Positions 7,598-32,781 of a DNA stretch of 36,239 nucleotides are shown piece by piece (positions within the stretch are counted from its first letter, which is position 1; each line of letters begins with the position of its first letter). Position numbers and translations under genes: made by a program. The DNA comes from Candidatus Wolframiiraptor sinensis (GTDB lineage: Archaea > Thermoproteota > Nitrososphaeria_A > Caldarchaeales > Wolframiiraptoraceae): contig JALNKA010000002.1 of NCBI GenBank assembly GCA_023261815.1, positions 1 through 36,239 on the forward strand, in the 5' to 3' direction. Under the pieces are notes generated by a model, which ran no database searches, was not told the DNA's origin, and saw nothing but the letters and a program-made list of their open reading frames with translations.

Positions 7598-8881
7598 CTA
7601 CTCCGGCTTCTGCGGATTTATAGACTCGAACTCGCCGTAAACGTGATCGACGTCGAGACCGGAGCTCAGCAGGAGCCTCGCCTCAACCTCGTCCGCGAAC
7701 TCCGATGCCAGCTCCCTGTCAAATGACACGATCTCATCTATCAAGTCTATTGGAAATGGCAGGCCTGTCGCCGGGTTCGCGGATGCTTGAAGATGGGCTA
7801 GGGCTTGATCCTGATCTACGCCGCTTCCGAGCTCTATGCATGCCGGCGCGGCATAGGGAGATAGCCTGACGTAAAGCCTCCTCGGAGATAGCACCTCGCG
7901 ATAGGTCGCGTCCTTGAGAGCGTCGCACGCGCCCTCGGGGCAGAGATCCGTCGCTATCTGAAGTCTAAGCTTCCCCTCAACATGCTCAAGGACTATCCTT
8001 AGCTTCTCATCATCGGGCTTTCCACTGATCTTCCTCTTTATCTCGCGGAACCATCCCTTCAAGCCGCTGTAATGGAGGTAGTATGAGTTTTCGCCGAGTA
8101 GGTCCGCGTAGTCGAAGTATTCTCCGGGGCGCATGAGCCTCCTGAGTATTGCTCTATCGTTTCTGTTCAACATCGAATTGAGGGACCATGTTCTCGAGAG
8201 GAGCCAGCCATCTATCGCCGCTGTTCTAACCCTCTTTATCACCGCCACGGCTCTCCCGCTCTCCCTCAACCTCCTCGTAAGCTCATAGACCTCGTCGATT
8301 AGATCCCATCCAGTCTTTATGCTCAGCCGCTCGAGCTCCGGGCCCTCGAGGCCCATCTCATCAACTCTCTTATCCTTTATCTCGCTACACCGGGTCCTAA
8401 AGCCGTAGAAGGAGCCGTCGATGAGCATGAGATCGACATCATACTTCTCGATGCATCGGAGGGCCAGCCTGCGCTCGAGGAGCGTCGCGAGAAGGCTTAA
8501 GATCTTCCTAGTGTGCAGCGGGCTGCCGGTCTGGGGAGATACCAGGTACCCCGACTCCATGGACTCCTCATCATCGTCCGTGATTATCTCATCGCCATCG
8601 AAGACCATGTATGTCGCCGCGTAGACCCCGATCCTGAAGCCGAGCCTTTCGCTGAGCTTCGGCGAAAAGGATCCATCAACAACACCGATCCTGAGATCGG
8701 GGAGGCGATCGCCGGAAATTCTCCTAAACCTCAGGTTTTGCATAAGCTGGCCAAGCTTCTCATCCTCCCTTCTAAGGATCCTTGAGATCCGCCCGCAAGC
8801 CTCCTCCGCCAGCTCGAAGAACTGCTTTTGGAGCCTTGGAGGAAGCTTCGAGAATGCCGTCTCCCTCTCCGGCTCGCTCAA
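7598..8881 (-). CDS. nurA: NurA family 5'-3' nuclease
   Basis: GVVDGS, LMLIDGS, AVAVIKR, GLPFPIDLID; probable TTG start at 8881 behind SD GGTGGAGG and a GAAAACC-TTTATC promoter (ORF track start is 8938). Confidence 0.85.
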   Translation of the reverse strand: MSEPERETAFSKLPPRLQKQFFELAEEACGRISRILRREDEKLGQLMQNLRFRRISGDRLPDLRIGVVDGSFSPKLSERLGFRIGVYAATYMVFDGDEIITDDDEESMESGYLVSPQTGSPLHTRKILSLLATLLERRLALRCIEKYDVDLMLIDGSFYGFRTRCSEIKDKRVDEMGLEGPELERLSIKTGWDLIDEVYELTRRLRESGRAVAVIKRVRTAAIDGWLLSRTWSLNSMLNRNDRAILRRLMRPGEYFDYADLLGENSYYLHYSGLKGWFREIKRKISGKPDDEKLRIVLEHVEGKLRLQIATDLCPEGACDALKDATYREVLSPRRLYVRLSPYAAPACIELGSGVDQDQALAHLQASANPATGLPFPIDLIDEIVSFDRELASEFADEVEARLLLSSGLDVDHVYGEFESINPQKPE

Positions 8882-8934
8882 CCGGCCTCCACCAGCGGGT
8901 TGAGAGCCGCCCATCCGATAAAGGTTTTCCGAGA

Positions 8935-13409: not shown

Positions 13410-14897
13410 TTAGCGCGCCTTATCTTCGCTTATCTGGAAGCTTATGAGGAGCGGCGTGGGAGATGGATTCATTCTGCCGAGGAAGTAGAAGTGGCCCTCG
13501 GGGAGCGTCAGCAGATTCTCGGGCGAGATGTAGTATGATGCCGCGAGCTTCTGAGCCTCCTCGAAGTCGAGCGGGTGAATTCTCCCTATGAACTGCGTGT
13601 TGAGGTTTCTTCTCACGGCCGCGTTTAGCCCTATCTCGCCCGCCATCCCCTGCGATAAGATCACTATCGAGAGGCCATAGCTTCTCCCGAGCGCGCAGAG
13701 GTCAATTATTATGTCGGTCGTCTCCCTTTCGAGACCTCGCGGCTGCCATGGAGCATACTGCGGCCCCTCATCTATCACGAGAGCGACGTCGAGCCTCTGC
13801 TTATTCTCCATAAGCCTCTTCAGGTATCTGGCTATCGAGTAGAATGCCGCGAGCTTCTGCTCCTTCTCGCCCTTGCTCATGTCTATCACGACTACGCCCC
13901 TCTCCTTCGCCATCGTCATGATCCTCCATGGCTCGATCGTCCCGAGAAAGCGCTCAATCTCCTCCTCCGTTATCAGCTCGAAGGATGAGTCGAGCCTATC
14001 GAGCCAGAGCTGGAGGGTCTCGGCTTTAATCCTCCCCGCGTTCTGCTGCAGAGTGGCTTTTGCATATTGGTAGATTAGGTTCCTAGCCTCCTCGGGCGGC
14101 CTCCCCCTCCACTCAACTCTCCTTAGCGCCCTCTCAACGGCTATCGCGACCGGGTTCTCCTCCCTCTCAAGGTACCCGAAATTCCTCGTCAGCTGGCTGA
14201 AGTATCTCAGGACGGTCGAGTCATCTATCTTGACTTGGTCAAGCGGTATAACGTTCTCGAAGAATGGCGCGTAATCGCTTCCCTTCCAGTCCATGATTAT
14301 CACACTGTAGCCCGCTTTCCTGAGAAGGGGTATCACCTCGTATCTCGCGAGATAGCTCTTCCCCGAGCCCGTTACGCCGAATATGCCTATGTGGTAGTTT
14401 ATGTACTGCTTGAGAACCGGCACCTTCCACCTCGGCTCCGCCCAATAGTGCCCTATCGTAAGATCAGATCTGCAAAGGTACTTCATCGGGTCATCCTCGC
14501 TCGTATACATCTCGACGAGCGATGTGGGCGCGATTATGAGCTTGTTCTGCTCCAGCCCATTCTCCCCTATCATGCCGATTATCTCGAGGTTGAAGACGTA
14601 GAACTCCTTGACGCTGCTCGGCGATCTCCCGGTCTTCGCATAGGCTATGCCTGGCGTGAAGCTAGCGGTCCTAACATTATCGTTCATGCCCCTCCCTCCC
14701 CTGCATATCGCCAAGACATCCCTGCCATTCTTGTTCCTGATTACGACAAGGCTCTCATTCTTGACCACCTTCTCCATCCCGTCGTAGAGTATCACGGATG
14801 CCCTGGACTCGCTCGCGCCGCTCGAGATCACGCCTATGGGTGTGGGCAGCCTACAACCCCCCACTATGATGGGCTGGGCAGCCGTATATAATGCCAT
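13410..14897 (-). CDS. herA: HerA/FtsK family ATPase (HAS barrel + DUF87 P-loop domain)
   Basis: Walker A HIGIFGVTGSGKS, DWKGSDY, Walker B LVIDEG, arginine finger GRSYG and ILSQ; true start probably GTG 14864 or CTG 14849, since a TTATATA box lies at 14886-14892. Confidence 0.88.
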   Translation of the reverse strand: MALYTAAQPIIVGGCRLPTPIGVISSGASESRASVILYDGMEKVVKNESLVVIRNKNGRDVLAICRGGRGMNDNVRTASFTPGIAYAKTGRSPSSVKEFYVFNLEIIGMIGENGLEQNKLIIAPTSLVEMYTSEDDPMKYLCRSDLTIGHYWAEPRWKVPVLKQYINYHIGIFGVTGSGKSYLARYEVIPLLRKAGYSVIIMDWKGSDYAPFFENVIPLDQVKIDDSTVLRYFSQLTRNFGYLEREENPVAIAVERALRRVEWRGRPPEEARNLIYQYAKATLQQNAGRIKAETLQLWLDRLDSSFELITEEEIERFLGTIEPWRIMTMAKERGVVVIDMSKGEKEQKLAAFYSIARYLKRLMENKQRLDVALVIDEGPQYAPWQPRGLERETTDIIIDLCALGRSYGLSIVILSQGMAGEIGLNAAVRRNLNTQFIGRIHPLDFEEAQKLAASYYISPENLLTLPEGHFYFLGRMNPSPTPLLISFQISEDKAR

Positions 14898-14920: not shown

Positions 14921-16363
14921 TTAGCTTCCCTCATTCTCCAGAGCCCGCTTATGCTCTTCATCATCATAACTCCTATACTTCAGTATTATCTCGCACCATC
15001 TCCTCTCGGGGCAGTATCCGAGGTGCTTGCACTTCTCGCCCATCAGCTCGCCCAGCCATGGGGCCTTCTCGCTAACCTGCCTCCAGACCTCATACGCTAT
15101 CCTCCTAACCTCCCACTGCGATGTGCTGCACGCCCTAGTCGCGATGAAGCCCTGCGGCCAGAGAAGATTAAACGCATTATAGGATCTGATCGCATATATT
15201 CTCACCGCCTGAGGGATTATGTAGATCGCGTCCGATGGCTGGGCGCCTCCCTCGATCAGCTTCTTATATGCTTCCAGAAGGCCGGCCGCCGCCTCCATGA
15301 AAAGATCCACGAGCCTCTTGCTTCTTGCAATCCTCGGGGGAATAATCAGGCCCTGCTCGGGCTTGGAGAGGCAGCGCTCAGCCGCCGAGTATATCGACTC
15401 CACCGCCGTCGGGATGGTCCTATGCCTTATCGCCTGATGATAGGCTGCGAGGGACATCGGCTCGAGGAATACCGCCTGGATGAGCGGGTTCAGGACATGT
15501 GCTCTCGCTGGATCCTCGAGGGATTCCTTGATCGTATCAGCCCGCTCCAAGAGCGAGATGAAGTTCAGCATAACGGGGCCTCCTCCATGCTTCTCCACGA
15601 GATCTTCGATCACGTGATCCGGTTCCCTATACGGATTAGCATACGGATATGTTGGGAGCTTCATCCTAAACTTCAGCCTAGCCTCCGTGAGATGGGGCGC
15701 GATCCTCCTAGCGACCTCGCCGATCCTCCTGCCGATTAGCGAGAGCTCCTCCGGATACCATGGTGATCCATCCCCATGTTTCTCCGCATCGATTATGAAT
15801 CCGAGGAATGTTTCTAGACTCCCGCTCATGAAAAGCGATGTCGCCGAGGCGAGCGGGAGAACGTATCTAGCATCCTCGGGCTCCACGCCCTCTTCCAATA
15901 ATCTCGAATACGCGTCATGAGCTGCATCAACCATCCTGGCATACGTGAATCTGAGATCTTCTCTTGCCGCGGCTCTGGGCGGGATGAAGAAGCCCTCTCT
16001 TCTGACGATGCTCCTCCGCTGAGACTCTTGGAGATATGAGCCGAAGGGCGGTGAGACCAAGAGGAGGGACGCGGCCCTGCTGCACCGGGATATCTCTAGC
16101 TGAAGCGTCAGGGATGTTGTTAAGGATGCGTGGCCCCTTCGAGTTGACTCGCGGTGAAATGTAGAGACTATTCTCCTGAGATCGCCACCAGATTCCAAAA
16201 GCTCACCATATCTCTCGGCTATGGATACTCTCCTGAGCGTCCCGATGCCTTCTAGGGCTATGAGGGTGTCAGGCTCGAGCTTGATCTTCTCGCCGTGTAG
16301 CTCTATCTCGCCGGCCGGCCCATAATCCAATAGCCTCACACATATGTCATTGAGGGTTAGCAT
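14921..16363 (-). CDS. thyX: Flavin-dependent thymidylate synthase ThyX, tandem two-domain form
   Basis: Domain 1: RRGHAS, CSR, LQESQR, EDARYVLP; domain 2: HQAIRHR, DAIYIIP, RACSTSQWEVR, terminal KC-x4-YCPE; ATG 16363 preferred to 16417. Confidence 0.88.
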   Translation of the reverse strand: MLTLNDICVRLLDYGPAGEIELHGEKIKLEPDTLIALEGIGTLRRVSIAERYGELLESGGDLRRIVSTFHRESTRRGHASLTTSLTLQLEISRCSRAASLLLVSPPFGSYLQESQRRSIVRREGFFIPPRAAAREDLRFTYARMVDAAHDAYSRLLEEGVEPEDARYVLPLASATSLFMSGSLETFLGFIIDAEKHGDGSPWYPEELSLIGRRIGEVARRIAPHLTEARLKFRMKLPTYPYANPYREPDHVIEDLVEKHGGGPVMLNFISLLERADTIKESLEDPARAHVLNPLIQAVFLEPMSLAAYHQAIRHRTIPTAVESIYSAAERCLSKPEQGLIIPPRIARSKRLVDLFMEAAAGLLEAYKKLIEGGAQPSDAIYIIPQAVRIYAIRSYNAFNLLWPQGFIATRACSTSQWEVRRIAYEVWRQVSEKAPWLGELMGEKCKHLGYCPERRWCEIILKYRSYDDEEHKRALENEGS

Positions 16364-16438
16364 GCTGCTCTTAAGATGGTGCCGGGAGCCCGGATATAGC
16401 GCCTCCCCAAGCGCCAAAGAGGGAGTATTACCGGAGAA

Positions 16439-19960: not shown

Positions 19961-21232
19961 ATGAGTAGCGGTGAGTTGAGCTTTAGCAGAAAGGATTATG
20001 TTAGCTTATACAGGTTCAAGAAGCTGATTAAGGAGCTCGAGTCGAAGGAGGGCAGGGGAACAGAGCTAATCTCGCTCTATATTCCGCCGAATAAGCCTAT
20101 CTCTGACGTCGTAGGATATCTCAGGCAGGAGTATTCGACTGCGGCTAACATAAAGTCGAAGAGCACGAGAAAGAACGTACAGGACGCGATCGAGAGCGCG
20201 ATTCAGAGGCTCAAGCTATTCGATCGCGCGGGCCCAACGGGGCTCGTGATATTCAGCGGAGCCATTCCTCAGGATGGCGGAGCCGGAACCGAGAAGATTG
20301 AGGTTTACCACATCATCCCGCCTGAGCCGATAAACCTCCTGCTATATCGATGCGATAGCAAGTTTTACCTCGAGCCGTTGAAGGAGCTTCTCAAGGAAAA
20401 GGACGTCTACGGGGTTCTCGTAATAGATAATGAGGAGGCGGCGGTTGCAGTGGTGAGGGGGAGGAGGATAGTCGAGCTGAAGAAGTTTACATCAGGAGTT
20501 CCGGGGAAGCATCACGCCGGAGGACAGTCAGCCCGAAGATTTGAGAGGCTGAGGGAGATGAACCTAAACGAGTATTATAAGCGTGTCGCCGCACACGCAA
20601 ACGAGATCCTTCTCAAAGAGCCTGGCCTGAAGGGCGTGATAGTCGCGGGTCCAGGCCCAACTAAGGAGGTGTTTGTCGAGAAGGGATATCTCCATTACAC
20701 GCTCCGGGACAAGATCCACATAGTCGATACTTCTTACTCGGGCGAGGAGGGGGTGAGGGAGGCGATAAGGAAGGCCGAGGACTTCCTGAGAGAGCTCAGG
20801 CTCGTCGAGGAGCAGAAGCTCGTCAGAAAGCTGATGGACGAGATAGCGAGGGAGAACTCAAGAGCCGTCTATGGGGAGAAGGAGATTCTAAGAGCCATGG
20901 GAAGCGGGATGCTCGAGCTCCTACTCCTCTCGGAGGATCTCGATAAGTATAGAGTTATAGTGAAATGCGGTAACTGCGGCGCGGAATACGAGTACACCCT
21001 CAGCGAGGATGAGAAGATCTCAAGGCTTCCCGAGATGCTGGCGAAGCCCTGCGAGAGGTGTGGCCAGCGATCTCTCCAAGTCTCCGGGGAGCAGCCTCTC
21101 GTGGACTTCTACATCGAGGAGGCCGAGAAAGCGGGAGTCAAGGTGGAGCTCATCTCATCGGATCATGAAGAGGGTGCCATGCTTAAGAGCCTCGGGGGGG
21201 TCGCGGGCTTCCTGAAGGGCTACGGCGGCTAA
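19961..21232 (+). CDS. prf1: Peptide chain release factor aRF1
   Basis: GTELISLYIP, NIKS, YRCD, GGQSARRF, CGNC...CERC Zn-ribbon insert in domain 3; SD GGGGTGA. Confidence 0.97.
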   Translation: MSSGELSFSRKDYVSLYRFKKLIKELESKEGRGTELISLYIPPNKPISDVVGYLRQEYSTAANIKSKSTRKNVQDAIESAIQRLKLFDRAGPTGLVIFSGAIPQDGGAGTEKIEVYHIIPPEPINLLLYRCDSKFYLEPLKELLKEKDVYGVLVIDNEEAAVAVVRGRRIVELKKFTSGVPGKHHAGGQSARRFERLREMNLNEYYKRVAAHANEILLKEPGLKGVIVAGPGPTKEVFVEKGYLHYTLRDKIHIVDTSYSGEEGVREAIRKAEDFLRELRLVEEQKLVRKLMDEIARENSRAVYGEKEILRAMGSGMLELLLLSEDLDKYRVIVKCGNCGAEYEYTLSEDEKISRLPEMLAKPCERCGQRSLQVSGEQPLVDFYIEEAEKAGVKVELISSDHEEGAMLKSLGGVAGFLKGYGG

Positions 21233-22191
21233 GCGAGCCTGGGGATAGCTAAGTTGGCTATATCATACTGCATGTCCGCGATTCCGAGAACTGCGTCTCT
21301 TATCCGGAGCTGCTCGACTGCGAGCTTTGGAGGGGTCAGTAGCTTAGTCAGGATCTCCAGATTCTTCTTCATCTGCGGTATAACTTCGAGCCTCCTATTC
21401 AGAAACGCCTCCATCGCGAGCTTATGGTTCGCTAAGAGTATCTCCGAGACCTTGCCGGCGTGAAGTGCGCTCTCCGCAGTCTTACCGCCGCCCGAGATTA
21501 AGCCCGAGACTTCAAATGCCTTATCGGCTATATTCTCGAGAAAATACGCCGCCAGCCTATAATCGAGGATTTCGACGCTCGTGAGGCCTAGGAGGACTGC
21601 TAGTGCCGGGTTCGCGAGACTTTTCCTCAGTGTCCTGACCATGTAGAAGTATAGCCTATCCATGTCATCCTCGATCTTCTCGAGAAGGCCGGAGGTCTCC
21701 AAGCCTTTATCGCCAGCGGGGCTGAAGGAGTATCTCAGCATATCATCCGAGAGCTTCCACATTCTTCTTAGAACCTCGGAGGGCTTGAGCTCCAGCGGGT
21801 CTATAACCATCCTGAGCAGCAACGTTGACTCCGCAGACTCGACTATCTCGAGGCCCATGAGCCTCTCCTTCAGGTAGAAGAGCTCGCTCTCGAGAACTTC
21901 CTTTACATGCTGGGGGAAGTTTATGCGCATCGAGTCATAGCCCATGAGATAGGCGGCTACAATCTTATCCACGAGCGATCGAGTATCTGACTCGAACTTC
22001 AGCTTAACCTCGCTCTCCCTCTCAACGCCGGTCGGCGAGATGATAAGGGAGTTTCCGGCGATCTCCACGACGAGGTAATCGCCTTCGCCAAGCCCGATAG
22101 CCTCCACCCAGCTCTTCGGAAGACTGACCACGAGAGATCCGCCGCTCCTCATGATGCTTCGCAGGACCCTGCCCTCTTGCTCCTGCGTCAT
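21229..22191 (-). CDS. AbrB/MazE-domain + PhoU-domain transcriptional regulator
   Basis: GGSLVVSLPKSWV...GEGD, AAYLMGYD, GLEIVE, EDDMDRLYF, LENIAD. Confidence 0.9.
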   Translation of the reverse strand: MTQEQEGRVLRSIMRSGGSLVVSLPKSWVEAIGLGEGDYLVVEIAGNSLIISPTGVERESEVKLKFESDTRSLVDKIVAAYLMGYDSMRINFPQHVKEVLESELFYLKERLMGLEIVESAESTLLLRMVIDPLELKPSEVLRRMWKLSDDMLRYSFSPAGDKGLETSGLLEKIEDDMDRLYFYMVRTLRKSLANPALAVLLGLTSVEILDYRLAAYFLENIADKAFEVSGLISGGGKTAESALHAGKVSEILLANHKLAMEAFLNRRLEVIPQMKKNLEILTKLLTPPKLAVEQLRIRDAVLGIADMQYDIANLAIPRLA

Positions 22192-23057: not shown

Positions 23058-23968
23058 ATCCTAAAAGGAGCTATGCTCGGGCTCCAGCCCCGCTCTCAAG
23101 CATCTTCTCGCCCAAGACTCGCGGAGAAAGTCCAGAGGAGGTCGGAGCCAGGGGCGGCGGATTCACCTTGCCCGGAGCAATAGAGACATATGCGGAATAT
23201 TATCCTGGGGAAAGCGATCTAGTAGAGGTCTATGTTAATGGCGCGGCGGCTGATCATCCGACGTCATGCAGGGCTGCCGAGATCTCGAGAAAGCTCCTAG
23301 GCCTTCGGGGGAGGATAGCTCTCAGGCACAGCGTCGGCGTCCCGATAGGTATGGGCTTTGGCACGAGCGCCTCCCTGGCCCTAACAACGATCCTAGCATT
23401 ATTCAGGATAGCTGGCCGCGGAATATCACTCATGGACGCCTGCAGGATCGTCCACGAGATAGAGATCGAGTGCGGGACCGGATTGAATAGCGAGGCCGGT
23501 TTCCTGTCCGATGGCCTAATCCTAGTTTTGAATGCTGGCGCGCCTCCTAAGCTCAGAGTTGACTCCATTCCGCTGCCGCGCAATTCCGTCCTCATAGTCG
23601 TGGCCGCCGGCCCGCTTGAGACTCATAGAGCACTGAGCCGAGGTGACCTCGATATGATCGAGGAGGTCGGGGACAGGAAGATCGGCGAGATCTTGGAGAA
23701 CCCGACGCCTGAGATTTTTCTCGAGAAGTCGAGGGAGTTCGCGCTGGAGACGGGGCTCGCGACCAAGAGGGTTCAGGAGATCTTCAGAGAGCTCGAGAGG
23801 CTCCGGTTGATCGGCTATGCCCAGAACATGATTGGCGAGGCATGCCACGCGCTGGCGCTGAAAGAAGATGCGGAGGTTGCGGTGATGAGGCTCAAGGAAG
23901 TTTTCCCAGATTATCTGGTGAAGACATTTGAGCTGGCCAGCTCGATAAGCTCCTCCCTCACGTCTTAA
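23054..23968 (+). CDS. GHMP kinase, pantoate-kinase-like (divergent)
   Basis: GHMP loop PIGMGFGTSA, HEIEIECGTGL, SREFALETGL, AQNMIGE; TTG start overlaps the ECF-S stop. Confidence 0.78.
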   Translation: MNPKRSYARAPAPLSSIFSPKTRGESPEEVGARGGGFTLPGAIETYAEYYPGESDLVEVYVNGAAADHPTSCRAAEISRKLLGLRGRIALRHSVGVPIGMGFGTSASLALTTILALFRIAGRGISLMDACRIVHEIEIECGTGLNSEAGFLSDGLILVLNAGAPPKLRVDSIPLPRNSVLIVVAAGPLETHRALSRGDLDMIEEVGDRKIGEILENPTPEIFLEKSREFALETGLATKRVQEIFRELERLRLIGYAQNMIGEACHALALKEDAEVAVMRLKEVFPDYLVKTFELASSISSSLTS

Positions 23969-25142
23969 ACTCGCCCACGAGGCCGTCAAAGCTCCGGATG
24001 AATTCATCCTCGGCTCCGGCGGGTATGAGGCCTGAGGCGGCGAACTTGTGCCCATCAGCCGATCCGCCGACCATCTCGGAAGCCTTTATCGCTAGATCGG
24101 AGATCGGCGGCATGGAGCCCCTCTCCACTAGGCCCGCGAGCTTCCTCGGTGCCCTGATAGATAACTTGATCCAGCTGCCCTGTATTCTCCCGAGCTCCGG
24201 GATCTCCGGCTCGAAGTTCATGAAGCCTATGATGTAGCGGTCTGGATCGATGTTCTTCCTGTAGCTGAGCATCGAAGTTAATGTTCCGATGGTCTTTGAT
24301 CCCAAGCCCTTGAAAAGGTCTCCGAGATGATACCACTGAGCCCATCTGCTCCTCCGCATCCCAGTCTTAGCGATGAGGGCGAAGGCTTGAGCGAACTTCC
24401 TCCTCCTCAGATCCTCGAACTTGGCCGCCAAGCTCTCCGGGATCATCCTATTCTTAAGGTGTCTCACAGCCTCCTGCGGCCCCCGCATATAATATCCCAC
24501 GCTCCCGATCGCAGAGAGCGTTGAGGAGAGCTCCTTCCAGGACTTCCCTAGAAACTTCACCTGATAGCTCTCTCCACTGCCCTCGCCGACTACCTCCACG
24601 TCTCCAGAGCTCACGGCGTCCTCCAGCGCAATTCTATTCAGCTTCCTCAATTCTCCGGGGATCTCAGCCGACCCGATCACGGCCATCCAGGCTGCATCCC
24701 GCGCGCCCAGCACCTCTCTAACCAAGAGGTAGGCGGCGGTTGATCCACTAACATCGCTCTCGCCCTCATATCCATACAGCTCGGGGTTCAGGTGAAGGAG
24801 CCTCGGATGCTCCGCCTCAACCGGGTCGTGGTGATCTAGGATTATTGCCGCGCCCCCAAACCTCTCGAGAGCCCGCGCTATCAGGTCGGCCCTACCCGAG
24901 CCTATATCCGCGTAAAGATAGAGACCTTCACCTCGAGAATGTATGAGCTTCACGATCTCCGGAGAGAGCTTCTCGACGCATATTAGCCTATGCGATATCC
25001 CAACTCTATCCAAGAGGAGGGAGAGGATTGCTCCGGCGCAAAGGCCATCGGCATCATCGTGAAAGATCAGGAGAGCCTCGCGGAACTCTTTAAGTAGCGA
25101 GGAAACCCGTCCCAACGCCTCCCTATACTCCAGGTTCATCAT
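23958..25142 (-). CDS. DHH-family phosphoesterase (archaeal RecJ/GAN/HAN-like nuclease)
   Basis: HDDADG, ADIGSG, ILDHH, HLNPELYG, DHHA1 motifs KLSIR and DGHKFAASG. Confidence 0.88.
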   Translation of the reverse strand: MMNLEYREALGRVSSLLKEFREALLIFHDDADGLCAGAILSLLLDRVGISHRLICVEKLSPEIVKLIHSRGEGLYLYADIGSGRADLIARALERFGGAAIILDHHDPVEAEHPRLLHLNPELYGYEGESDVSGSTAAYLLVREVLGARDAAWMAVIGSAEIPGELRKLNRIALEDAVSSGDVEVVGEGSGESYQVKFLGKSWKELSSTLSAIGSVGYYMRGPQEAVRHLKNRMIPESLAAKFEDLRRRKFAQAFALIAKTGMRRSRWAQWYHLGDLFKGLGSKTIGTLTSMLSYRKNIDPDRYIIGFMNFEPEIPELGRIQGSWIKLSIRAPRKLAGLVERGSMPPISDLAIKASEMVGGSADGHKFAASGLIPAGAEDEFIRSFDGLVGEFKT

Positions 25143-25218: not shown

Positions 25219-25773
25219 ATGGGATCCCAGCTGAAGGATCAGGTGATCCAGGCCGCAGGCCTCATGTGTGTGAGCGCCAGAACAGCCCCGAAAACCCGCG
25301 GACTAGACGACCTGGAGATCCTGGTAATATCCGATGAGGGCGATCTCAGGAGGCTGGCTGATGAGATGGAGCGCATGGGCTCCGAGCTAGGCCTAGCGTT
25401 CTTCCAACGCGATGCCGAGAACGTGAGGCAATCGGATGCTGTTCTCCTTATCGGTGTGAAGTCCTCGAAGCCCAAGGAGCTGAACTGCGGCGGATGCGGC
25501 TACCCGACATGCGAGGAGTTCAGGAAGGCGAGGAGGATGAGCGGGAAGCCTTATCATGGGCCTAGCTGCGCGTTCCAGCTCATCGACCTTGGAATAGCAG
25601 TTGGATCAGCAGTCAAGACGGCCTCGCTCCTGAACATCGATAATAGGATCATGTATTCTGTTGGAGCCGCTGCCTTGAGAGTCGGATTCCTGAGGGAGTC
25701 CGATACAGCCCTCGGCATCCCGCTATCCGCCTACGGGAAGAGCATATACTTCGATAGAAGGCCGAAGGCTTAG
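25219..25773 (+). CDS. DUF2148 ferredoxin-like Fe-S domain protein
   Basis: SARTAPKTRG, FFQRDAENV, LNCGGCGYPTC, GPSC, DLGIAVGSA, DNRIMYSVG, KSIYFDR. Confidence 0.85.
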   Translation: MGSQLKDQVIQAAGLMCVSARTAPKTRGLDDLEILVISDEGDLRRLADEMERMGSELGLAFFQRDAENVRQSDAVLLIGVKSSKPKELNCGGCGYPTCEEFRKARRMSGKPYHGPSCAFQLIDLGIAVGSAVKTASLLNIDNRIMYSVGAAALRVGFLRESDTALGIPLSAYGKSIYFDRRPKA

Positions 25774-28037
25774 CCGAAGAAGTCTATCAGCGTTCTCTCG
25801 CCGGACTCCAGAATCTTCTCTGCACTTACTCCAACGGCCTCGAGGATTCTACCACACGCCGCCACAACCTGCTTCTCCACATAATACTCCCAGTCAACCT
25901 CATCCCTTGAGACCTTGAAGTAGGGTTTTGCTCTGGAGTATAGAGGGCCGGAGCCGGCGGTCACGATGAACCCTATCTTGTCTCCGGGTTGAATCCTCCA
26001 TCCCTCGCTCATGAGCTGCTTGGCGACGACTATGTGGGGCTGGGTCGCGGAGTACTCGCTGAGCGGCCTAGTTATCTGCTTCCAGATTATGAGCTTCCTC
26101 AAGTCGACCTGGTGATTTCTAAGCGCTTGGACGTATTCTCTGGCCTTCTTGAGGGCTTGAGCTGGATCTCCAGTCTCGAGCAAGGCCTTGACCGTCTCGT
26201 ATTGGGCTTCTCTCGCTATCCCGCTCCAGTCTCCTCTTACGGTCTCCAGCCCGGCGACCTCTATCCCTCCATCAGCGGTTATGCCGGCATACCTCTTCTT
26301 CGCCTCCGTGAAGATTATCCTCTTGAAGATCTTCTCCAGCTTCGCCTCGAGGCCGAGCTCCACCTCGATCCACTCAACCAGCTTCTCCAGCTTTCCATGG
26401 TAGTTCTTGAGGAAGACGGAGTCCGTGTCCGAGTAGATCACTTTCATCCCAAGCTCTTCGGCCTTTCTCATCGTGGAGGCGATCACCTCCCTGCCCCAGG
26501 CCGTAGTCGCCTCCGCAACCTCCCTAGAGTACCACCTCGCGCCCGACCAGCCCGTATAACCATAGACGGCGTTCGCGATGATCTTGACCGCCCTCTGCCT
26601 CGCGTCTAGAATCTTGGCCTCAACGCTTCCATGCGGCGCCGCCTTCAGCCTTTCCTGAATCTTCCTGCGCTCCTCGAGCAGCGTCTTCAGGGCCATCGGG
26701 AGGAAGCCCTCGGGCCTTGCCCTAAACCTGTGGCCGCTAGGCGCAATATTCTCACCATCATCGCTCAGCGTGTCGAATGAGATGTTATACTTGATTATCA
26801 GGCTCGGGTACATCGACCTGAAGTCTAGGACCGCGACGTCCTCGTGCATGCCTCTTATAGGCTCCTTCACGAGGCCGCCGGGATAACTCACGTGCGCGAT
26901 CTCGGTTCTCCTCGGGATGAGCTCGCCAGCTCGGGGGGCCAGCCTCATCAAGTAGCTCTCAACCCTGAAGCCGGCGGAGGCCGTCAGAACATAGTCGGCG
27001 GGCATGCCGGTCAGCTCGCTCAGGCTGAAGATGAACTCCCTGATGGCGTCGAATGCCCTGAGAATCGCCTCAGACCTCTGAGCCGAGTAATTCTTAACCC
27101 GCCGCCTGTCCTCCCTCCAGAGATCGCCGAGCTCATATTCTTCTATCGTATCCAGCCTCGCGTCTATGCCGAGATATCTCACGAACTCCTCTAGCGTTTC
27201 CACGGTGAGCTCCGGTATATCCCTGGCCATGTCCTCGAGGTCTATGTTGAGCCTCCCGCGTATCGAGACGTGGCCGTGCACGCTCATCCTGGGCTCGGCT
27301 CCCAGCCTGCCAACAGCCATCCTAACACCAATCCTCTTAGCCCTCTCCGCGAGATAGCTCCACTGAAATCTATTCGAGCCGAAGCCGACGATGATATCTG
27401 GATCGGCCTCGCGCACAGTCGAGATGAAGGATCTAATGATCTCGGCCTCATCGCCCTCGAGCTGGATAATCCTCCCATCATCGAAGCAAAGGGTTATCAG
27501 CCGAATGGGATCCCGCTCAGCCCTCGGAGAACCCTTCTCGCCGAAGACCACCATATCCATGGACACGACCTTGAGCGCCGGCGGCGGAGCCTCATCCGCC
27601 TCCCTGACCTCGCAGCACTCGAGAACCCGGACGCCATCCTCGGCGCCCACGTCCAAGCCATCGACCTCGAGCCAAGAGCACGGCCTCAGACCCACATCCA
27701 TCAAATACTTGACGGTGATTCGGACATCATCCTCATAGGCCTCCAGCGCCGGCATCCTCCTCAAAAGCCTCCCAGCATAATCCTCCAGATCCTCCCTGTC
27801 CACGTAGACCCTTAGAGCCTCAACAGGTTTTCCGCGAACCCTCCGAGAGCACCTCTCAAACCTGAGGCCCTCAGCCCTTAATAACTCAGCAGCCCCATCC
27901 AGATTCCCGACAAGATAGAAGCTTGGAGTATACCTCACTCTAGCCAGCCAGGTAGATCCGTCGCCCGCCTTCATCCAGAGCGCTATCACGGGCCCTCCAT
28001 CCTGCTCTGATGCTAGGTCGAGTAGCCAGAGCCTCAT
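25770..28037 (-). CDS. polB3: Family B DNA polymerase, PolB3 type, with degenerate 3'-5' exonuclease
   Basis: Pol motifs DFRSMYPS, KIIANAVYGYTGW, YSDTDS, KKRYAG, ETVRGDW; C-terminal PIP-like RTLIDFF; Exo motifs altered. Confidence 0.9.
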   Translation of the reverse strand: MRLWLLDLASEQDGGPVIALWMKAGDGSTWLARVRYTPSFYLVGNLDGAAELLRAEGLRFERCSRRVRGKPVEALRVYVDREDLEDYAGRLLRRMPALEAYEDDVRITVKYLMDVGLRPCSWLEVDGLDVGAEDGVRVLECCEVREADEAPPPALKVVSMDMVVFGEKGSPRAERDPIRLITLCFDDGRIIQLEGDEAEIIRSFISTVREADPDIIVGFGSNRFQWSYLAERAKRIGVRMAVGRLGAEPRMSVHGHVSIRGRLNIDLEDMARDIPELTVETLEEFVRYLGIDARLDTIEEYELGDLWREDRRRVKNYSAQRSEAILRAFDAIREFIFSLSELTGMPADYVLTASAGFRVESYLMRLAPRAGELIPRRTEIAHVSYPGGLVKEPIRGMHEDVAVLDFRSMYPSLIIKYNISFDTLSDDGENIAPSGHRFRARPEGFLPMALKTLLEERRKIQERLKAAPHGSVEAKILDARQRAVKIIANAVYGYTGWSGARWYSREVAEATTAWGREVIASTMRKAEELGMKVIYSDTDSVFLKNYHGKLEKLVEWIEVELGLEAKLEKIFKRIIFTEAKKRYAGITADGGIEVAGLETVRGDWSGIAREAQYETVKALLETGDPAQALKKAREYVQALRNHQVDLRKLIIWKQITRPLSEYSATQPHIVVAKQLMSEGWRIQPGDKIGFIVTAGSGPLYSRAKPYFKVSRDEVDWEYYVEKQVVAACGRILEAVGVSAEKILESGERTLIDFFG

Positions 28038-28518: not shown

Positions 28519-29574
28519 ATGAGAGGCGGCCGAGCGGAAAGGGTCTTCCGGAGGCTTCAGGTAGTCGGTAGGGCCAGCTACTCTATCTCCATTCCGAAGA
28601 GCTGGGTTCTTAGAATGGGGTTGAAGCCCGGGGATATCCTCGAGATAAGCGAGGGTATTGATGGTAGTCTTAGGCTTAGCCCGCCAGAGGCTAGGCTGAG
28701 GAGGAGCCTATGCAGGATAAATGCTGATCTCTGCAGGGATCTCGATCATCTTGGAGCGATAATCTTGGCGAGCTATAGGGTTGGCTATGATGTGGTCCAG
28801 GTAAGCTGCTCGAAGAGCCCGATCCATGAGCTATCTAGGAGCTTGGAGAGCCTTATCGAGGGCCTTCCGGGCTTCGAGCTGGATCAGGGCCAAAACTCCG
28901 AGCTAATTCTCCGAAATGTTCTCGACTACTCCCGATTCCCGGCCGATGATCTCGTTAAGCGGAGCTATATCATTGTCTCCGAGATGCTCAATACTCTCTC
29001 GAGCTTTCTCGAGACCGGGAGATACGACCTCATACCCTATATCGAGACCTTGAGGCGGCGCATTGGCGAGCTTCTCCAGCTGCATGCCAGGCTCATGATG
29101 ACCTATTTCAGGAGGAGGGAGCTGGGGAGGTTTCTCAAGCTTCAAAACCCGCCCCACATATACTCCTCGATAATCCTGGAGAACTTGATGGATTCTCTCG
29201 CCGAGGTCATCTTGGAGCTCGCCAAGCGAGCATCCATGCTGGGGAAGAAGGTATGGGCGGACTCCACGACGTACAATGGATTGAGGAGGGCGCTCGACGA
29301 GTCATCAAGACTCATTGATGGAGCTATCAGAGCCTATCTCTCCTTAGATCCGGAGCAAGCGCACTCGATTTTAAGCCTCCCAAAAGAGCACCTCGCGGGG
29401 ATCCTGAGGGAGGAGGTCGAGGAAACTCCTCCGAAGGATAGGCAATTGATAGCTTTGATAGCTCAAGCCGAGGCCGCCCTAACTATAATCCAGTCAATAG
29501 CTCAGAGGATAGCGCAGCTCTCCCTCGACATCTTCATGGAGTCTGAGAACCCCATATGCGAGGTAAGGAGCTAG
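28519..29574 (+). CDS. AbrB/MazE-domain + PhoU-like regulator (second, more divergent paralog)
   Basis: RRLQVVGRASYSISIPKSWV...GLKPGD, ASYRVGYD, PGFE, helical PhoU-like repeats. Confidence 0.85.
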   Translation: MRGGRAERVFRRLQVVGRASYSISIPKSWVLRMGLKPGDILEISEGIDGSLRLSPPEARLRRSLCRINADLCRDLDHLGAIILASYRVGYDVVQVSCSKSPIHELSRSLESLIEGLPGFELDQGQNSELILRNVLDYSRFPADDLVKRSYIIVSEMLNTLSSFLETGRYDLIPYIETLRRRIGELLQLHARLMMTYFRRRELGRFLKLQNPPHIYSSIILENLMDSLAEVILELAKRASMLGKKVWADSTTYNGLRRALDESSRLIDGAIRAYLSLDPEQAHSILSLPKEHLAGILREEVEETPPKDRQLIALIAQAEAALTIIQSIAQRIAQLSLDIFMESENPICEVRS

Positions 29575-30285: not shown

Positions 30286-32781
30286 CTAGATGAAGTATTC
30301 CAGGCTCGTCATGCCCGTTATCTTGTTCACGTCTATTCCAAGCGCGTCCAAGACCTGCTCGAACGTTGATAGGAGGTATTCGACGTACTTATCGACATCC
30401 ACTTGATCTTTTCTAGCGAATTCTAGGGGCTCCACGCCATCGCTATCCTTGGTCTTGACGTAGGCTATTATATCTCCGGGAACAATAGATATTCCTCGGC
30501 TGATGAGCTTTCTGGCAGCCTTGACGTGGGGCGGGGTCGTCTTCACATACCTGTCCACGCTCTTAGAAAGCATGACCTGAAAGGATAAGTCCTCCAAGTT
30601 GTATTCCCCCTTCTTAAGGGCCTGATACTTGGCTCGAACCAGCTCCTCGATCCTCCTCTTCGCGCGCTCGAACTCCTCCTCGTTCCTGACCCCCCTGAGT
30701 ATCTCCAGCATCTCCTCGAAAGAATCTTTTATGAACTTGGGGATGTGGGCTTTCTTTCCCGTGAGCCCCTTGACATCGACGACCCCCTTATCGGTGACGC
30801 CTAGATAATTCTTCTTCCTCTGCGAGAAGACCACGTACCTGTACTTCTTGTCGAGCTCCAAGTCGAGCTTCATTTCCTTTTTGACCCATGAGACTAGCTC
30901 GTTTATCAGCTCCTCATTATCGGTCTTTATGAAGAGGCTGTCCGTGTCGCCGTATAGCACTTGGATCCCCAGCTCCGTCGCCTTCTCGACCGTTCTCCTG
31001 AACGCGTATCTCGCTATCGCCGCCGTGCTCTCGGCAACGGGCGGGCAGTAAAGCGGGAACTCCTCGAATCCGAAGACGCCGTAAGCCGCGTTTAGGAAGA
31101 CCTTGAGAGCTCTCTGGACGACGCCATACCATCTTCGCTGGCTCTCGGGGAGGCTTTTATCCGAGCTCTTCGGTTTATACCATCTAACCCTTATGTCTCT
31201 GAGGCATCCTATCACCTCGCTCTGAATCCCCCTTCTCTCCCTGCATATCCAGTGGCTGGTCTCCGGGACGACGTTATCTCTGCACCCCGGGTGCGGGCAT
31301 CTAGCGGTCTCATAGCTGAGATTCCACTCCTTTAAAACCGATGGATAAAGGGATGAGAAGTCTAGGACCGTTACGTCAAAGTGCACTCCGGGGACGGGTT
31401 CGACGACTATCGCGCCCCTATACTTCTTCCCCTCAATGATCGCCTTCGTCGAGATTACTCCCTTCTCCTCGAGGAGCTCATCATGTCTCGGTATCAGATA
31501 CCCCCTCCTCCTATGCTCGAAGTAGAGGAGGCTCTTGATCCACCCCGATACACCATGCCTGCATACGTCCTCCATCGGCATCCTGCTTATCCTCGAGAGG
31601 ACGACTAGGAGCTTGAGAATTAGCTCGTTATCCATCGTGAGGAGCTCATGGACGAGGAGAGCGTCTTGGAAGCAGTATCTCGCCAGCTCCTCTCCACTCA
31701 GCTCCCCGATCGGCTTCTCCAGCGCGATCTTACCCTTACCCAGTATCGCATGGGCTATAGCCTCGAGAGTGTGCTCCCTATACTTGTTGTCGAAGGCATA
31801 AACTTGTATGCTCCTATTCATGAAGAACTTGTAGAGATCTATATGTATCCCGTGTCTCAGCGATGCGCCCTCCTTCCCAAGGACTATCGGGATCTGCTCC
31901 TTTGGGATCTTCAGGGCCTCGGCCCTATGCCTGAGATATGGTAGATCAAAGTCGTCGCCGTTGAATGTCGCTAGTATTGGGTATTGCTGGATGACCTCAA
32001 AGGCATCCTTGAGCATCTTGGCCTCATCATCATATACCTTGACCTCGTAGATGCTCGTGCTCGAGATGTCTCCCAGCTTCGGCGTTCTGAGCAGGTAGAC
32101 CTCCCTCCTACCATCGCTTCCGATGAAGGCTATTGTCCCGACCTTATCTCGAGCCTTGCTCGGCGACGGAACTCTGGTCGCGACCGGCGACAAGACCTCT
32201 ATATCCATCGAGAGGTGCTTGAATGCCGGCTGATCGGCCTCGAAGAGGCTTATCCACTCTGCTAGAAGCCTTTTCTCCTCATCCGGCAGGTCGCCGAAGA
32301 CATTCTCCACGATCTCCCTGATCCTCTCGTCGCTAGGTAGATATTCGCTCAGCTTATTATCCGAGAGGATATATGGCATGCATGGCGTGAGCTTCATATC
32401 ATAGAGGTAGCAGAGGTGGTATGGTATATCGGCCTCCCAGGCTTTTATCCTCTCCCTTATCGAGCTGCTGCTACCGCCTATAGCCAGTGGATCGCTTGCG
32501 ATTATCTTCGTCAACTCAACCTCCCGATCTCTCAGGAGATCATACTTTCTTTCACGTGTTAGCTCCACGACTCCGGGGAGCCCGAGCCCCTTAACCTCCT
32601 CGATCGCCTCCTTGACATAGCAGTAGGGCTTATGCCCGCTCTCATCGTATACCAGCTTGACCTCCTGAGTCTCAGGGTTCAGGAGCTTGAGATAGGCCTT
32701 CCCAGCCTTTCCATCATAACTGCACCCTATCAGGAAGTAGATGTCGTGGCGAATATGCTCGTCGAGCCGCGTCTGGGGCAT
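30286..32781 (-). CDS. polB1: Family B DNA polymerase, PolB1 type, proofreading intact
   Basis: ExoI DIE, ExoII FNGDDFD, ExoIII YCFQD; pol motifs DFSSLYPS, KVFLNAAYG, YGDTDS, KKNYLG; B1 signatures DESGHKPYCY, WEADI, NLSYET. Confidence 0.95.
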   Translation of the reverse strand: MPQTRLDEHIRHDIYFLIGCSYDGKAGKAYLKLLNPETQEVKLVYDESGHKPYCYVKEAIEEVKGLGLPGVVELTRERKYDLLRDREVELTKIIASDPLAIGGSSSSIRERIKAWEADIPYHLCYLYDMKLTPCMPYILSDNKLSEYLPSDERIREIVENVFGDLPDEEKRLLAEWISLFEADQPAFKHLSMDIEVLSPVATRVPSPSKARDKVGTIAFIGSDGRREVYLLRTPKLGDISSTSIYEVKVYDDEAKMLKDAFEVIQQYPILATFNGDDFDLPYLRHRAEALKIPKEQIPIVLGKEGASLRHGIHIDLYKFFMNRSIQVYAFDNKYREHTLEAIAHAILGKGKIALEKPIGELSGEELARYCFQDALLVHELLTMDNELILKLLVVLSRISRMPMEDVCRHGVSGWIKSLLYFEHRRRGYLIPRHDELLEEKGVISTKAIIEGKKYRGAIVVEPVPGVHFDVTVLDFSSLYPSVLKEWNLSYETARCPHPGCRDNVVPETSHWICRERRGIQSEVIGCLRDIRVRWYKPKSSDKSLPESQRRWYGVVQRALKVFLNAAYGVFGFEEFPLYCPPVAESTAAIARYAFRRTVEKATELGIQVLYGDTDSLFIKTDNEELINELVSWVKKEMKLDLELDKKYRYVVFSQRKKNYLGVTDKGVVDVKGLTGKKAHIPKFIKDSFEEMLEILRGVRNEEEFERAKRRIEELVRAKYQALKKGEYNLEDLSFQVMLSKSVDRYVKTTPPHVKAARKLISRGISIVPGDIIAYVKTKDSDGVEPLEFARKDQVDVDKYVEYLLSTFEQVLDALGIDVNKITGMTSLEYFI

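Follow-up and report, generated by a model that had tools for sequence, protein, structure and literature searches.

The 36,239-nucleotide stretch of Candidatus Wolframiiraptor sinensis DNA analysed here (contig JALNKA010000002.1, positions 1 to 36,239; the window) encodes a family-B DNA polymerase of the PolB3 lineage in which the polymerase site is intact and the 3'-5' exonuclease site is degenerate. This exonuclease-degenerate (exo-degenerate) state is found clade-wide, the gene (polB3) is under purifying selection, the branch to which it belongs is associated with the presence of PolD, and polB3 is linked, and in one lineage fused, to a gene for a RecJ-like DHH nuclease. With moderate confidence, the protein is interpreted as an accessory, non-proofreading and PCNA-bound PolB3, which would work with this RecJ-type nuclease beside proofreading PolD and PolB1 enzymes.

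An intact polymerase site and a degenerate exonuclease site

The polB3 gene and its diagnostic motifs lie on the reverse strand of the window:

25770..28037, reverse strand: polB3, 755-residue family-B DNA polymerase with a degenerate exonuclease site (open reading frame with ATG start, unbroken)
27549..27557, reverse strand: ExoI site, reads D161-M162-V163 and not D-x-E (5mdn_A alignment, residue mapping)
27363..27380, reverse strand: ExoII site, reads G220-SNR-F-Q225 and not N-xxx-F-D (same evidence)
27075..27089, reverse strand: ExoIII site, reads Y317-SAQ-R321 and not Y-xxx-D (same evidence)
26802..26825, reverse strand: motif A, DFRSMYPS, intact (D405, F406, S408, M409, Y410 and P411 invariant in 39 sequences)
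26559..26585, reverse strand: motif B, K-xxx-N-xx-YG (KIIANAVYG), intact (K485, N489, Y492 and G493 invariant in 39 sequences)
26418..26435, reverse strand: motif C, YSDTDS, intact (Y535, D537, T538, D539 and S540 invariant in 39 sequences)

Both family-B domains are recognised by Pfam in the polB3 product (gathering cut-off 23 bits for each): DNA_pol_B_exo1 (PF03104) with 64.5 bits and E 1.2e-17, and DNA_pol_B (PF00136) over residues 346-734 with 225.8 bits and E 1.3e-66. The best solved relative is 5mdn_A, which HMMER aligns collinearly with the whole protein (residues 1-755 against chain residues 1-783; E 3e-166, 557.7 bits) and which places its FDIEV, YNSNGFDW and YVLDDVRS over MDMVV, FGSNRFQW and YSAQRSEA of the window's protein. 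Read residue by residue, this alignment shows that three of the four exonuclease carboxylates have been replaced, so that the set of ExoI, ExoII and ExoIII carboxylates expected of a proofreading-proficient enzyme is lacking; because these residues bind the metals of the 3'-5' exonuclease site, PolB3 should be unable to proofread. The sole remaining carboxylate, D161, varies among orthologues, with Asn or other residues in several. At the four catalytic columns, Asp or Glu is present in 17%, 5%, 52% and 2% of 42 exo-degenerate rows of the phylum-wide sample described below, as against 100% at each in 23 exo-intact rows.

The polymerase motifs, by comparison with the family-B patterns, are of the Dx2SLYPS type (A), the Kx3NSxYG type (B) and the form YxDTDS (C), and both aspartates of motif C (Y-x-DTD) are kept in all 66 PolB3 rows of that sample. 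The initial annotation of this DNA had read the three exonuclease motifs as D-M-V, G-SNR-F-Q and Y-SAQ-R, and residue mapping reproduces these readings at exactly the same coordinates; its description of polymerase motifs A, B and C, of a C-terminal PCNA-interacting-protein (PIP)-like tail and of an unbroken frame is likewise accurate.

Placement within the PolB3 lineage

A phylogenetic tree was calculated from 419 polymerase-domain columns of 78 rows by an IQ-TREE quick search under the LG+C20 model, without bootstraps and without euryarchaeal PolB3 sequences; branch supports are from the Shimodaira-Hasegawa-like approximate likelihood ratio test (SH-aLRT). The tree separates a PolB3 clade of 65 rows (SH-aLRT 99) from PolB2 (9 rows, 98) and PolB1 (4 rows, 100), and the window's protein falls inside the PolB3 clade, beside its own family (support 99). 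On this tree the polymerase is a PolB3 by descent and not a PolB2, and alignment and tree together set it outside the recognised degenerate PolB2 group, as the initial annotation had proposed.

The NCBIfam equivalog cut-offs for archaeal polymerases are missed, the best score being 241.3 bits against 570 for NF004421, while the superfamily model TIGR00592 is passed (254.7 against 239.95); the sub-cut-off score fits a divergent PolB3 branch. The hallmarks of PolB2, namely a motif C with one Asp, a deleted ExoIII region and RadA-like or PPB2 neighbours, are all missing at this locus: in a Pfam scan no RadA-like or PPB2-like gene adjoined polB3, whose neighbours are DUF2148, RecJ-like, MazE-type and metallo-beta-lactamase genes. 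Assignment to the group termed 'PolB2 with intact DxD' in the available text of PMC11791011 was considered, and is rejected for the window's protein by the tree and the gene neighbourhood.

Spread of the exo-degenerate state

The comparison covered 40 relatives of the same order. Of the 24 family genomes among them, 19 carry an orthologue at 59-87% identity, and family f3 has more distant PolB3 orthologues (32-44% identity). Close relatives in the 59-87% range are labelled Candidatus Wolframiiraptor, Geocrenenecus, Benthortus and Aigarchaeota/Caldarchaeales. The D-x-E pair of ExoI is found in none of 24 aligned orthologues of the order, and equally in none of the best 120 of 215 database homologues (39-99% identity), of which all 120 keep motif C (DTD) and 119 keep motif A. 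Labels of these best 120 span Nitrososphaeria/Nitrososphaerota, Bathyarchaeia, Brockarchaeota, Conexivisphaera and Thermoproteota, with one Methanosarcinales.

For the phylum, 401 evenly chosen genomes were sampled, and a PolB3-type protein was matched in 233 of them at E <= 1e-60. From the 150 places listed, 60 of these matches were taken, at one to a few per family, and combined with 6 earlier rows into a set of 66. Exonuclease motifs are degenerate in 43 rows of this set, and all three are intact in the other 23. The intact rows form one branch of the polymerase-domain tree (SH-aLRT 97) together with a nested pair from family f45, which keeps D-x-E and has lost the ExoII and ExoIII aspartates. 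The exonuclease state changes at least twice on the tree, as compared with a mean of about 20 changes after label shuffling. Rooting with PolB1 and PolB2 turns the exo-degenerate rows into a weakly supported basal grade (supports 69 and 11) with long outgroup branches; because PolB3 rooting is unreliable for these reasons, neither one old loss nor several losses are claimed.

As far as these alignments can tell, the exo-degenerate state is an inherited trait of an old PolB3 branch and not a local oddity of this genome. The statement of the initial annotation that PolB3 is usually a proofreading enzyme accordingly holds for the exo-intact clade, nearly all members of which come from genomes without PolD, and does not hold for the sampled PolD-bearing lineages, given that 43 of the 66 rows are degenerate.

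Selection on polB3

In orthologue pairs of the family, the ratio of nonsynonymous to synonymous substitution rates (dN/dS, Nei-Gojobori) is 0.029-0.067 for the polymerase domain (residues 346-755; all ten pairs), 0.071-0.150 for the exonuclease domain (residues 131-345; nine pairs, dS being saturated in one) and 0.054-0.159 for the N-terminal domain (dS saturated in two of the ten pairs). This purifying selection, with dN/dS well below 0.2, means that polB3 is not a decaying gene. The ratio of exonuclease- to polymerase-domain divergence has a median of 1.37 in exo-degenerate sequences (255 pairs) versus 1.21 in exo-intact ones (231 pairs). The exonuclease domain is therefore somewhat relaxed yet clearly retained, which points to a structural role, and by its sequence it is clearly kept as a constrained domain. 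Taken with the orthologue alignments and the phylum sample, these values give a positive answer to the question raised in the initial annotation, whether the exonuclease loss is clade-wide with purifying selection on the polymerase domain.

N-terminal sites and C-terminal tail

Four further sites of the protein are of interest:

28008..28022, reverse strand: LDLAS, N-terminal site; aromatic of the exo-intact rows replaced
27915..27932, reverse strand: YTPSFY, N-terminal site; aromatic of the exo-intact rows replaced
27720..27737, reverse strand: YEDDVR, N-terminal site; aromatic of the exo-intact rows replaced
25773..25793, reverse strand: TLIDFFG, C-terminal PIP-like tail (translation, residue mapping)

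Each of the 23 exo-intact PolB3 rows has (S/T/N)-Y-(E/D/S/G/T), RPYFY and DIRF/DIRY or close variants at these three N-terminal positions, and the PolB1 of the same genome retains the aromatics as well (SYDG, KPYCY and DIPYH). In the window's PolB3 and its family the corresponding sequences are of the LASE, TPSFY and DVRIT types, from which the aromatics are gone. We take these positions to be the uracil-pocket residues of the Pfu and Tgo polymerases (Y7, P36/Y37, V93 and P115/F116 in Pfu/Tgo numbering). The N-terminal erosion pointed out in the initial annotation is thereby borne out, with the identity of the pocket as our assumption, and the window's PolB3 may have lost uracil sensing. Many other exo-degenerate PolB3 rows retain the N-terminal aromatics, so that this change is narrower than the loss of the exonuclease site.

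The C-terminal tail preserves the pattern T/S-L-x-D-F-F in the family members compared (TSLMDFF, TSLTDFF and STLTDFF), and PolB3 probably binds PCNA. In the fused PolB3-RecJ proteins described below, the linker stands where the PIP-like tail would be.

A RecJ-like DHH nuclease beside polB3

Two genes adjoin the 3' side of polB3:

23958..25142, reverse strand: divergent RecJ/Cdc45-type DHH nuclease paralogue, 394 residues, the next same-strand gene to polB3 (profiles, PDB and Foldseek)
25219..25773, forward strand: DUF2148/Fe-S protein, 184 residues, between polB3 and the RecJ-like gene and probably unrelated to them (PF09918, E 1.2e-31)

The RecJ-like protein scores 26.3 bits with the Pfam DHH model, slightly under the cut-off, and stays below the thresholds for canonical RecJ/GAN (NF053576, 173 bits against 360; NF053575, 86.3 against 850). 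Its PDB matches are archaeal RecJ-Cdc45, GAN, Pyrococcus furiosus RecJ and Methanocaldococcus jannaschii RecJ2 (E 1e-20 to 1e-22). An AlphaFold model calculated with 26 sequences (predicted local distance difference test score 94.1, predicted template modelling score 0.91) resembles archaeal RecJ-Cdc45 in Foldseek (best E 1.9e-29, template modelling score 0.75-0.80, about 20% identity). Motifs I-IV of the DHH family (DxD, D, DHH and a GGGH-type His) and the DHH plus DHHA1 fold are all present, and the active site looks live, since all 26 sequences share H28, D30, D32, D79, D103-H104-H105-D106 and H365 without exception. The genome also encodes a canonical RecJ (486-residue frame on contig C23; NF053576, 447.2 bits) and a 337-residue DHH/DHHA1 protein, which makes the RecJ-like gene an extra paralogue.

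The linkage to polB3 recurs. Of the 20 family genomes with this PolB3, 16 carry the RecJ-like gene no more than 1.3 kb from polB3 on one contig; in one of the remaining four the gene is elsewhere, and three are interrupted by contig breaks. The spacing is about 0.65 kb in the genus, the two genes are direct neighbours in genomes G014 and G018, and in three genomes of family f3 the RecJ-like gene is upstream of and adjacent to polB3. It adjoins polB3 in 21 of 30 named loci (in 7 of the other 9, the sequence of the locus runs out no more than about 0.9 kb from the gene) and in 20 of 55 further phylum genomes with both coordinates listed, where the pair is co-directional or convergent. Fusions occur at the G035 locus and in proteins P0100 and P0122, where some 50 linker residues connect an exo-degenerate PolB3 with the RecJ-like paralogue; the two proteins are 1187 and 1202 residues long and 81% alike. 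A query with P0123 for fused proteins of greater length gave no match, and the RecJ part of P0100 matched only P0100, P0122 and P0124. We conclude that the polymerase and the RecJ-like nuclease are likely to share a job.

Two observations concern related proteins. P0124 (1840 residues) combines HAD-hydrolase and FAD-oxidoreductase domains with a RecJ-like DHH region that shares 32% identity with the RecJ part of P0100; it may be a genuine fusion or result from the merging of separate gene calls. The RecJ-like paralogues that accompany exo-intact PolB3 in rows L111, L127 and L117 end in PCNA-box-like tails of the SLLEFM, SLDEFF and TLESFLF types; such a tail is absent from the window's RecJ-like copy and its family.

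The other DNA polymerases of the genome

The assembly (1.18 Mb in 33 contigs, 92.4% complete) contains three B-family polymerase genes: polB3, polB1 and the gene for a 718-residue protein on contig C9. Besides polB3, the relevant features are:

30286..32781, reverse strand: polB1, 831 residues, exonuclease motifs intact (NF004417, 1066.7 bits; cut-off 780)
Locus L073 (contig C9), 7365-9521, reverse strand: PolB2, 718 residues, motif C HGIVDS, ExoIII region deleted (tree and motif alignment)
Locus L073 (contig C9), 9499-9774, reverse strand: 91-residue gene overlapping and preceding PolB2 (open reading frame)

PolB1, encoded 2.2 kb from polB3, has DIE, NGDDFD and YCFQD all in place, so that it keeps every exonuclease residue and serves as the internal control that the initial annotation had made of it. 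The 91-residue gene before PolB2 may correspond to PPB2, the partner known from the PolB2 operon; at the contig C9 locus PolB2 is flanked by PIN and MazE-type genes and has no RadA-like neighbour. Elsewhere in the order, the PolB2 of family f2 (L138-L140; genomes G031, G025 and G039) has YGDVDS as motif C and lacks most of the ExoI region, and the other PolB2 rows have HGIVDS or HGIVDC.

PolD is represented in the genome by a DP2 subunit of 1128 residues on contig C4. Of the phylum-sample genomes checked for DP2, 39 of 41 exo-degenerate ones have it versus 1 of 23 exo-intact ones, and eight exo-intact families counted as wholes yielded none (f7 0/16, f14 0/23, f16 0/12, f20 0/5, f24 0/3, f25 0/12, f28 0/12 and f29 0/4). 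With only about two changes of exonuclease state along the tree, this link describes two large groups and is not a statistical finding.

PolY (PF00817) was not found in the genome, at its completeness of 92.4%. The initial annotation had asked whether PolY or PolB2 is lacking, and the answer is divided, PolY not being found and PolB2 being present. Within the order, PolY was not found in the families with this PolB3 (f1 0/24, f3 0/4) and is present in those without it (f2 6/6, f4 6/6). Across the phylum, PolY stands alongside exo-degenerate PolB3 in families f10 (11/17), f15 (23/25) and f26 (2/3), and in genus g3 both are missing. The complementary pattern is local: replacement of PolY by the exo-dead PolB3 was considered as a rule, and fits within the order and fails across the phylum, where f10 and f15 have both.

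A proposed accessory role and its alternatives

In the interpretation that we favour, the window's protein is a complete family-B polymerase of the PolB3 lineage, predicted to be catalytically competent and probably PCNA-bound, whose branch occurs in Thermoproteota that also keep an exo-intact PolB1 and PolD, an enzyme with a proofreading subunit of its own. Bulk high-fidelity replication would be carried out by PolD and/or PolB1, leaving to PolB3 a short-patch synthesis such as the filling of repair gaps or the extension and maturation of the lagging strand. PolB3 would act here with the adjacent RecJ-like DHH nuclease, which may process DNA or RNA ends by 5' resection, by flap or primer removal, or by removal of 3' mismatches in trans. 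We infer from sequence this division of labour, any physical binding between PolB3 and the nuclease, and the polarity and substrate of the latter.

Several observations weigh against such a role, which is itself drawn from sequence. The association with PolD rests on very few independent events, and PolD alone does not explain the exonuclease loss, because PolD-bearing Euryarchaeota typically keep an exo-intact PolB3. The polymerase and nuclease genes lie apart in 35 of the 55 phylum genomes outside the order. Nor does the nuclease link run parallel with the exonuclease state: the paralogue was not found in 17 of 43 exo-degenerate genomes (one at a contig end), it is present in 4 of 23 exo-intact genomes, in three of them beside PolB3, and it occurs without this PolB3 in genera g3 (7/7 genomes) and g11 (2/2). 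The PolB3-RecJ fusion is confined to one narrow lineage. Finally, two acidic columns particular to the exo-degenerate rows (E300 and E334; 88% versus 0% in exo-intact rows) could conceivably belong to a rebuilt exonuclease site.

Two weaker alternatives to the accessory role concern what the polymerase does once proofreading is gone. It might be a translesion or mutator polymerase in place of the missing PolY, which, with neither proofreading nor uracil stalling, copies past or extends from damaged bases. The failure to find PolY in this genome, its complementarity with PolB3 in the order and the replaced N-terminal aromatics would suit such an enzyme, and according to the available text of PMC7544198 exonuclease loss typifies Pol zeta and PolB2, two bypass enzymes of family B. 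We nevertheless judge this unlikely: PolY coexists with exo-degenerate PolB3 in many genomes of the phylum, genus g3 does without both, the genome already has PolB2, the recognised archaeal bypass B polymerase, with its 91-residue upstream gene, and the KKRY region, like motifs A, B and C, is canonical and invariant, giving no sign of an open or altered active site. Thus, of the specialised exo-dead PolB3 envisaged in the initial annotation, the dead exonuclease site, its clade-wide extent and the selection upon it stand, and lesion bypass is weakened by the frequent coexistence with PolY. Quite unlikely, in our estimation, is a replicative polymerase proofread in trans, in which the RecJ-like nuclease would remove 3' mismatches much as epsilon does for bacterial Pol III or DP1 for PolD. 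The two genes are linked, and fused in one lineage, the catalytic residues of the nuclease are intact, the paralogue is commoner in exo-degenerate genomes (26/43 versus 4/23, counts that are not phylogenetically independent), and some archaeal RecJ homologues are 3'-5' exonucleases, such as 6tvv, titled '3'-5' RecJ exonuclease from M. jannaschii'. As the paralogue also sits beside exo-intact PolB3 (families f29, f35 and f47), was not found in the 17 exo-dead genomes and outlives the loss of PolB3, the nuclease is not a simple proofreading substitute, and its replacing the lost exonuclease as a strict rule is rejected by this distribution.

A decaying or non-functional copy, or an artefact of assembly, deserves almost no credence; nothing but the lost catalytic residues of the exonuclease speaks for it, and it is contradicted by the unbroken 755-residue frame, the orthologues at 59-87% identity in 19 relatives, the invariant polymerase residues, the dN/dS in all three regions (in pairs with estimable dS) and the recurrence of near-identical DNA in environmental samples reported below. 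At the other extreme, the accessory PolB3 favoured here could be extended to a physical module, covalently joined in the one lineage with the fusion, in which PolB3 and its Cdc45/RecJ-type paralogue would tether a non-proofreading polymerase to the GINS-MCM helicase or the replication fork. In eukaryotes, the exo-dead Pol alpha rides on the Cdc45-MCM-GINS (CMG) helicase and extends primers, and proofreading polymerases, whose place PolD and PolB1 would take here, perform the bulk synthesis; an archaeal counterpart of Pol alpha on CMG is suggested by analogy and we regard it as very unlikely, a speculation. Were it true, PolD-bearing Thermoproteota would have evolved a division of labour among three polymerases, one of them a dedicated non-proofreader, either earlier than eukaryotes or independently of them.

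Environmental DNA, RNA and the wider window

Near-identical DNA is present in 20 of 24 listed runs from 10 studies (hot-spring metagenomes). In one metatranscriptome run, contigs cover the polB3 and RecJ-like genes at about 98% identity, which is a weak hint of transcription of both genes, since the contigs show presence in an RNA library. The summed metatranscriptome depth along the stretch ranges from 9 to 2789, against 12 to 30 for a DNA run. The RNA depth climbs from 73 to 866-2789 over 27262-27774 and is then 116-398 up to 28458, whereas the DNA run shows an even depth of about 15. In another RNA run from this study, the main contigs fall at 26880-27143 and 27505-27714. The peak at 27262-27774 has no Rfam match and no unusual folding energy; it may reflect an antisense RNA, a fragment from the 5' part of an mRNA or summed strain variants.

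Two proteins that are paralogues of each other, each with a MazE/AbrB-type domain at the N terminus, flank the polymerase region at 21229-22191 (reverse strand), where a PhoU domain is carried as well, and at 28519-29574 (forward strand). Farther off, all on the reverse strand, are genes for a NurA-domain protein (7598-8938), a HerA-type (DUF87) ATPase (13410-14897) and a 498-residue ThyX with two Thy1 stretches (14921-16417); NurA and HerA are separated by genes for a 929-residue acyl-CoA synthetase/GNAT fusion and fumarase.

Significance

The main interest lies in the PolB3 branch and its nuclease partner more than in a single gene. In textbooks and in the available reviews, PolB3 figures as the 'major' archaeal B polymerase, able to proofread, with PolB2 in the part of the degenerate enzyme, whereas most of the sampled PolB3 proteins of PolD-bearing Thermoproteota are exo-dead yet strongly conserved. 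The lineages concerned include abundant uncultured groups (Bathyarchaeia, Brockarchaeota and Caldarchaeales by label), and the polymerase set of these archaea needs rereading as to which enzyme replicates and which repairs. The branch is in addition a source of natural thermostable exo-minus B polymerases, and the compact RecJ-like nuclease, adjacent or fused, offers a specific and testable partner of PolB3. A relative of the genus is in enrichment culture, as the available text of PMC9246946 indicates, which brings biochemistry and expression within reach.

Comparison with known systems

In the available text of PMC4104785, PolB3 is the major polymerase and PolB2 the inactivated group. The literature searched contained no description of an exo-degenerate PolB3 branch or of a PolB3-RecJ pairing, the supplements of PMC7544198 and PMC4104785, which may show motif logos, being outside the search; nor did any paper found there treat PolB3 together with Bathyarchaeota.

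The closest characterised relative, 5mdn, is the family-B polymerase of Pyrobaculum calidifontis, a crenarchaeal PolB3 (PMC7544198, available text). It shares with the window's protein a collinear alignment over the full length, the order of domains, the polymerase motifs, the kind of C-terminal tail and membership of the PolB3 clade. Unlike 5mdn and the 23 exo-intact rows, which have DIE, N..FD and Y..DD, the window's PolB3 has DMV, G..FQ and Y..QR; the exo-intact clade differs further in keeping the N-terminal aromatics and in lacking PolD almost throughout (present in 1 of 23).

PolB2 (Dpo2), the recognised exo-degenerate archaeal B polymerase, is encoded in an iRadA-PPB2 operon (available texts of PMC7544198 and PMC11791011). 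Both proteins have an inactive exonuclease site in an otherwise B-family body, and a repair role is plausible for the PolB3 as well. PolB2, however, forms a separate clade with a one-Asp motif C, in which a His often comes first (HGIVDS; YGDVDS in some), and a deleted ExoIII region, whereas the window's PolB3 has YSDTDS and an ExoIII helix that is present.

Eukaryotic Pol alpha and Pol zeta combine an active polymerase site with a retained but inactive exonuclease domain and work beside proofreading replicases (PMC7544198, available text). The likeness of the window's PolB3 to their catalytic subunits, as an exo-dead B polymerase beside proofreading replicases, is an analogy of function only. 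Pol alpha is distant (E 1e-36 to 1e-39, over the polymerase domain only), as is Pol zeta (1e-26), and the window's PolB3 has neither their C-terminal metal-binding domain nor a B-subunit.

The RecJ-like protein shares its fold (Foldseek E 1e-29) and its DHH plus DHHA1 catalytic motifs with the archaeal RecJ/Cdc45 proteins, the structures compared being GAN (5ghr/5ght), P. furiosus RecJ (5x4h), Methanothermobacter thermautotrophicus RecJ-Cdc45 (7bhi/7bih) and M. jannaschii RecJ2 (6tvv). At 394 residues it is about 80 residues shorter than these proteins of 430-480 residues, to which it is about 20% identical. The genes of canonical archaeal RecJ proteins have an S15/S3/Pcc1 neighbourhood according to the available text of PMC3307487; the RecJ-like paralogue, unlike them, is genomically linked to PolB3.

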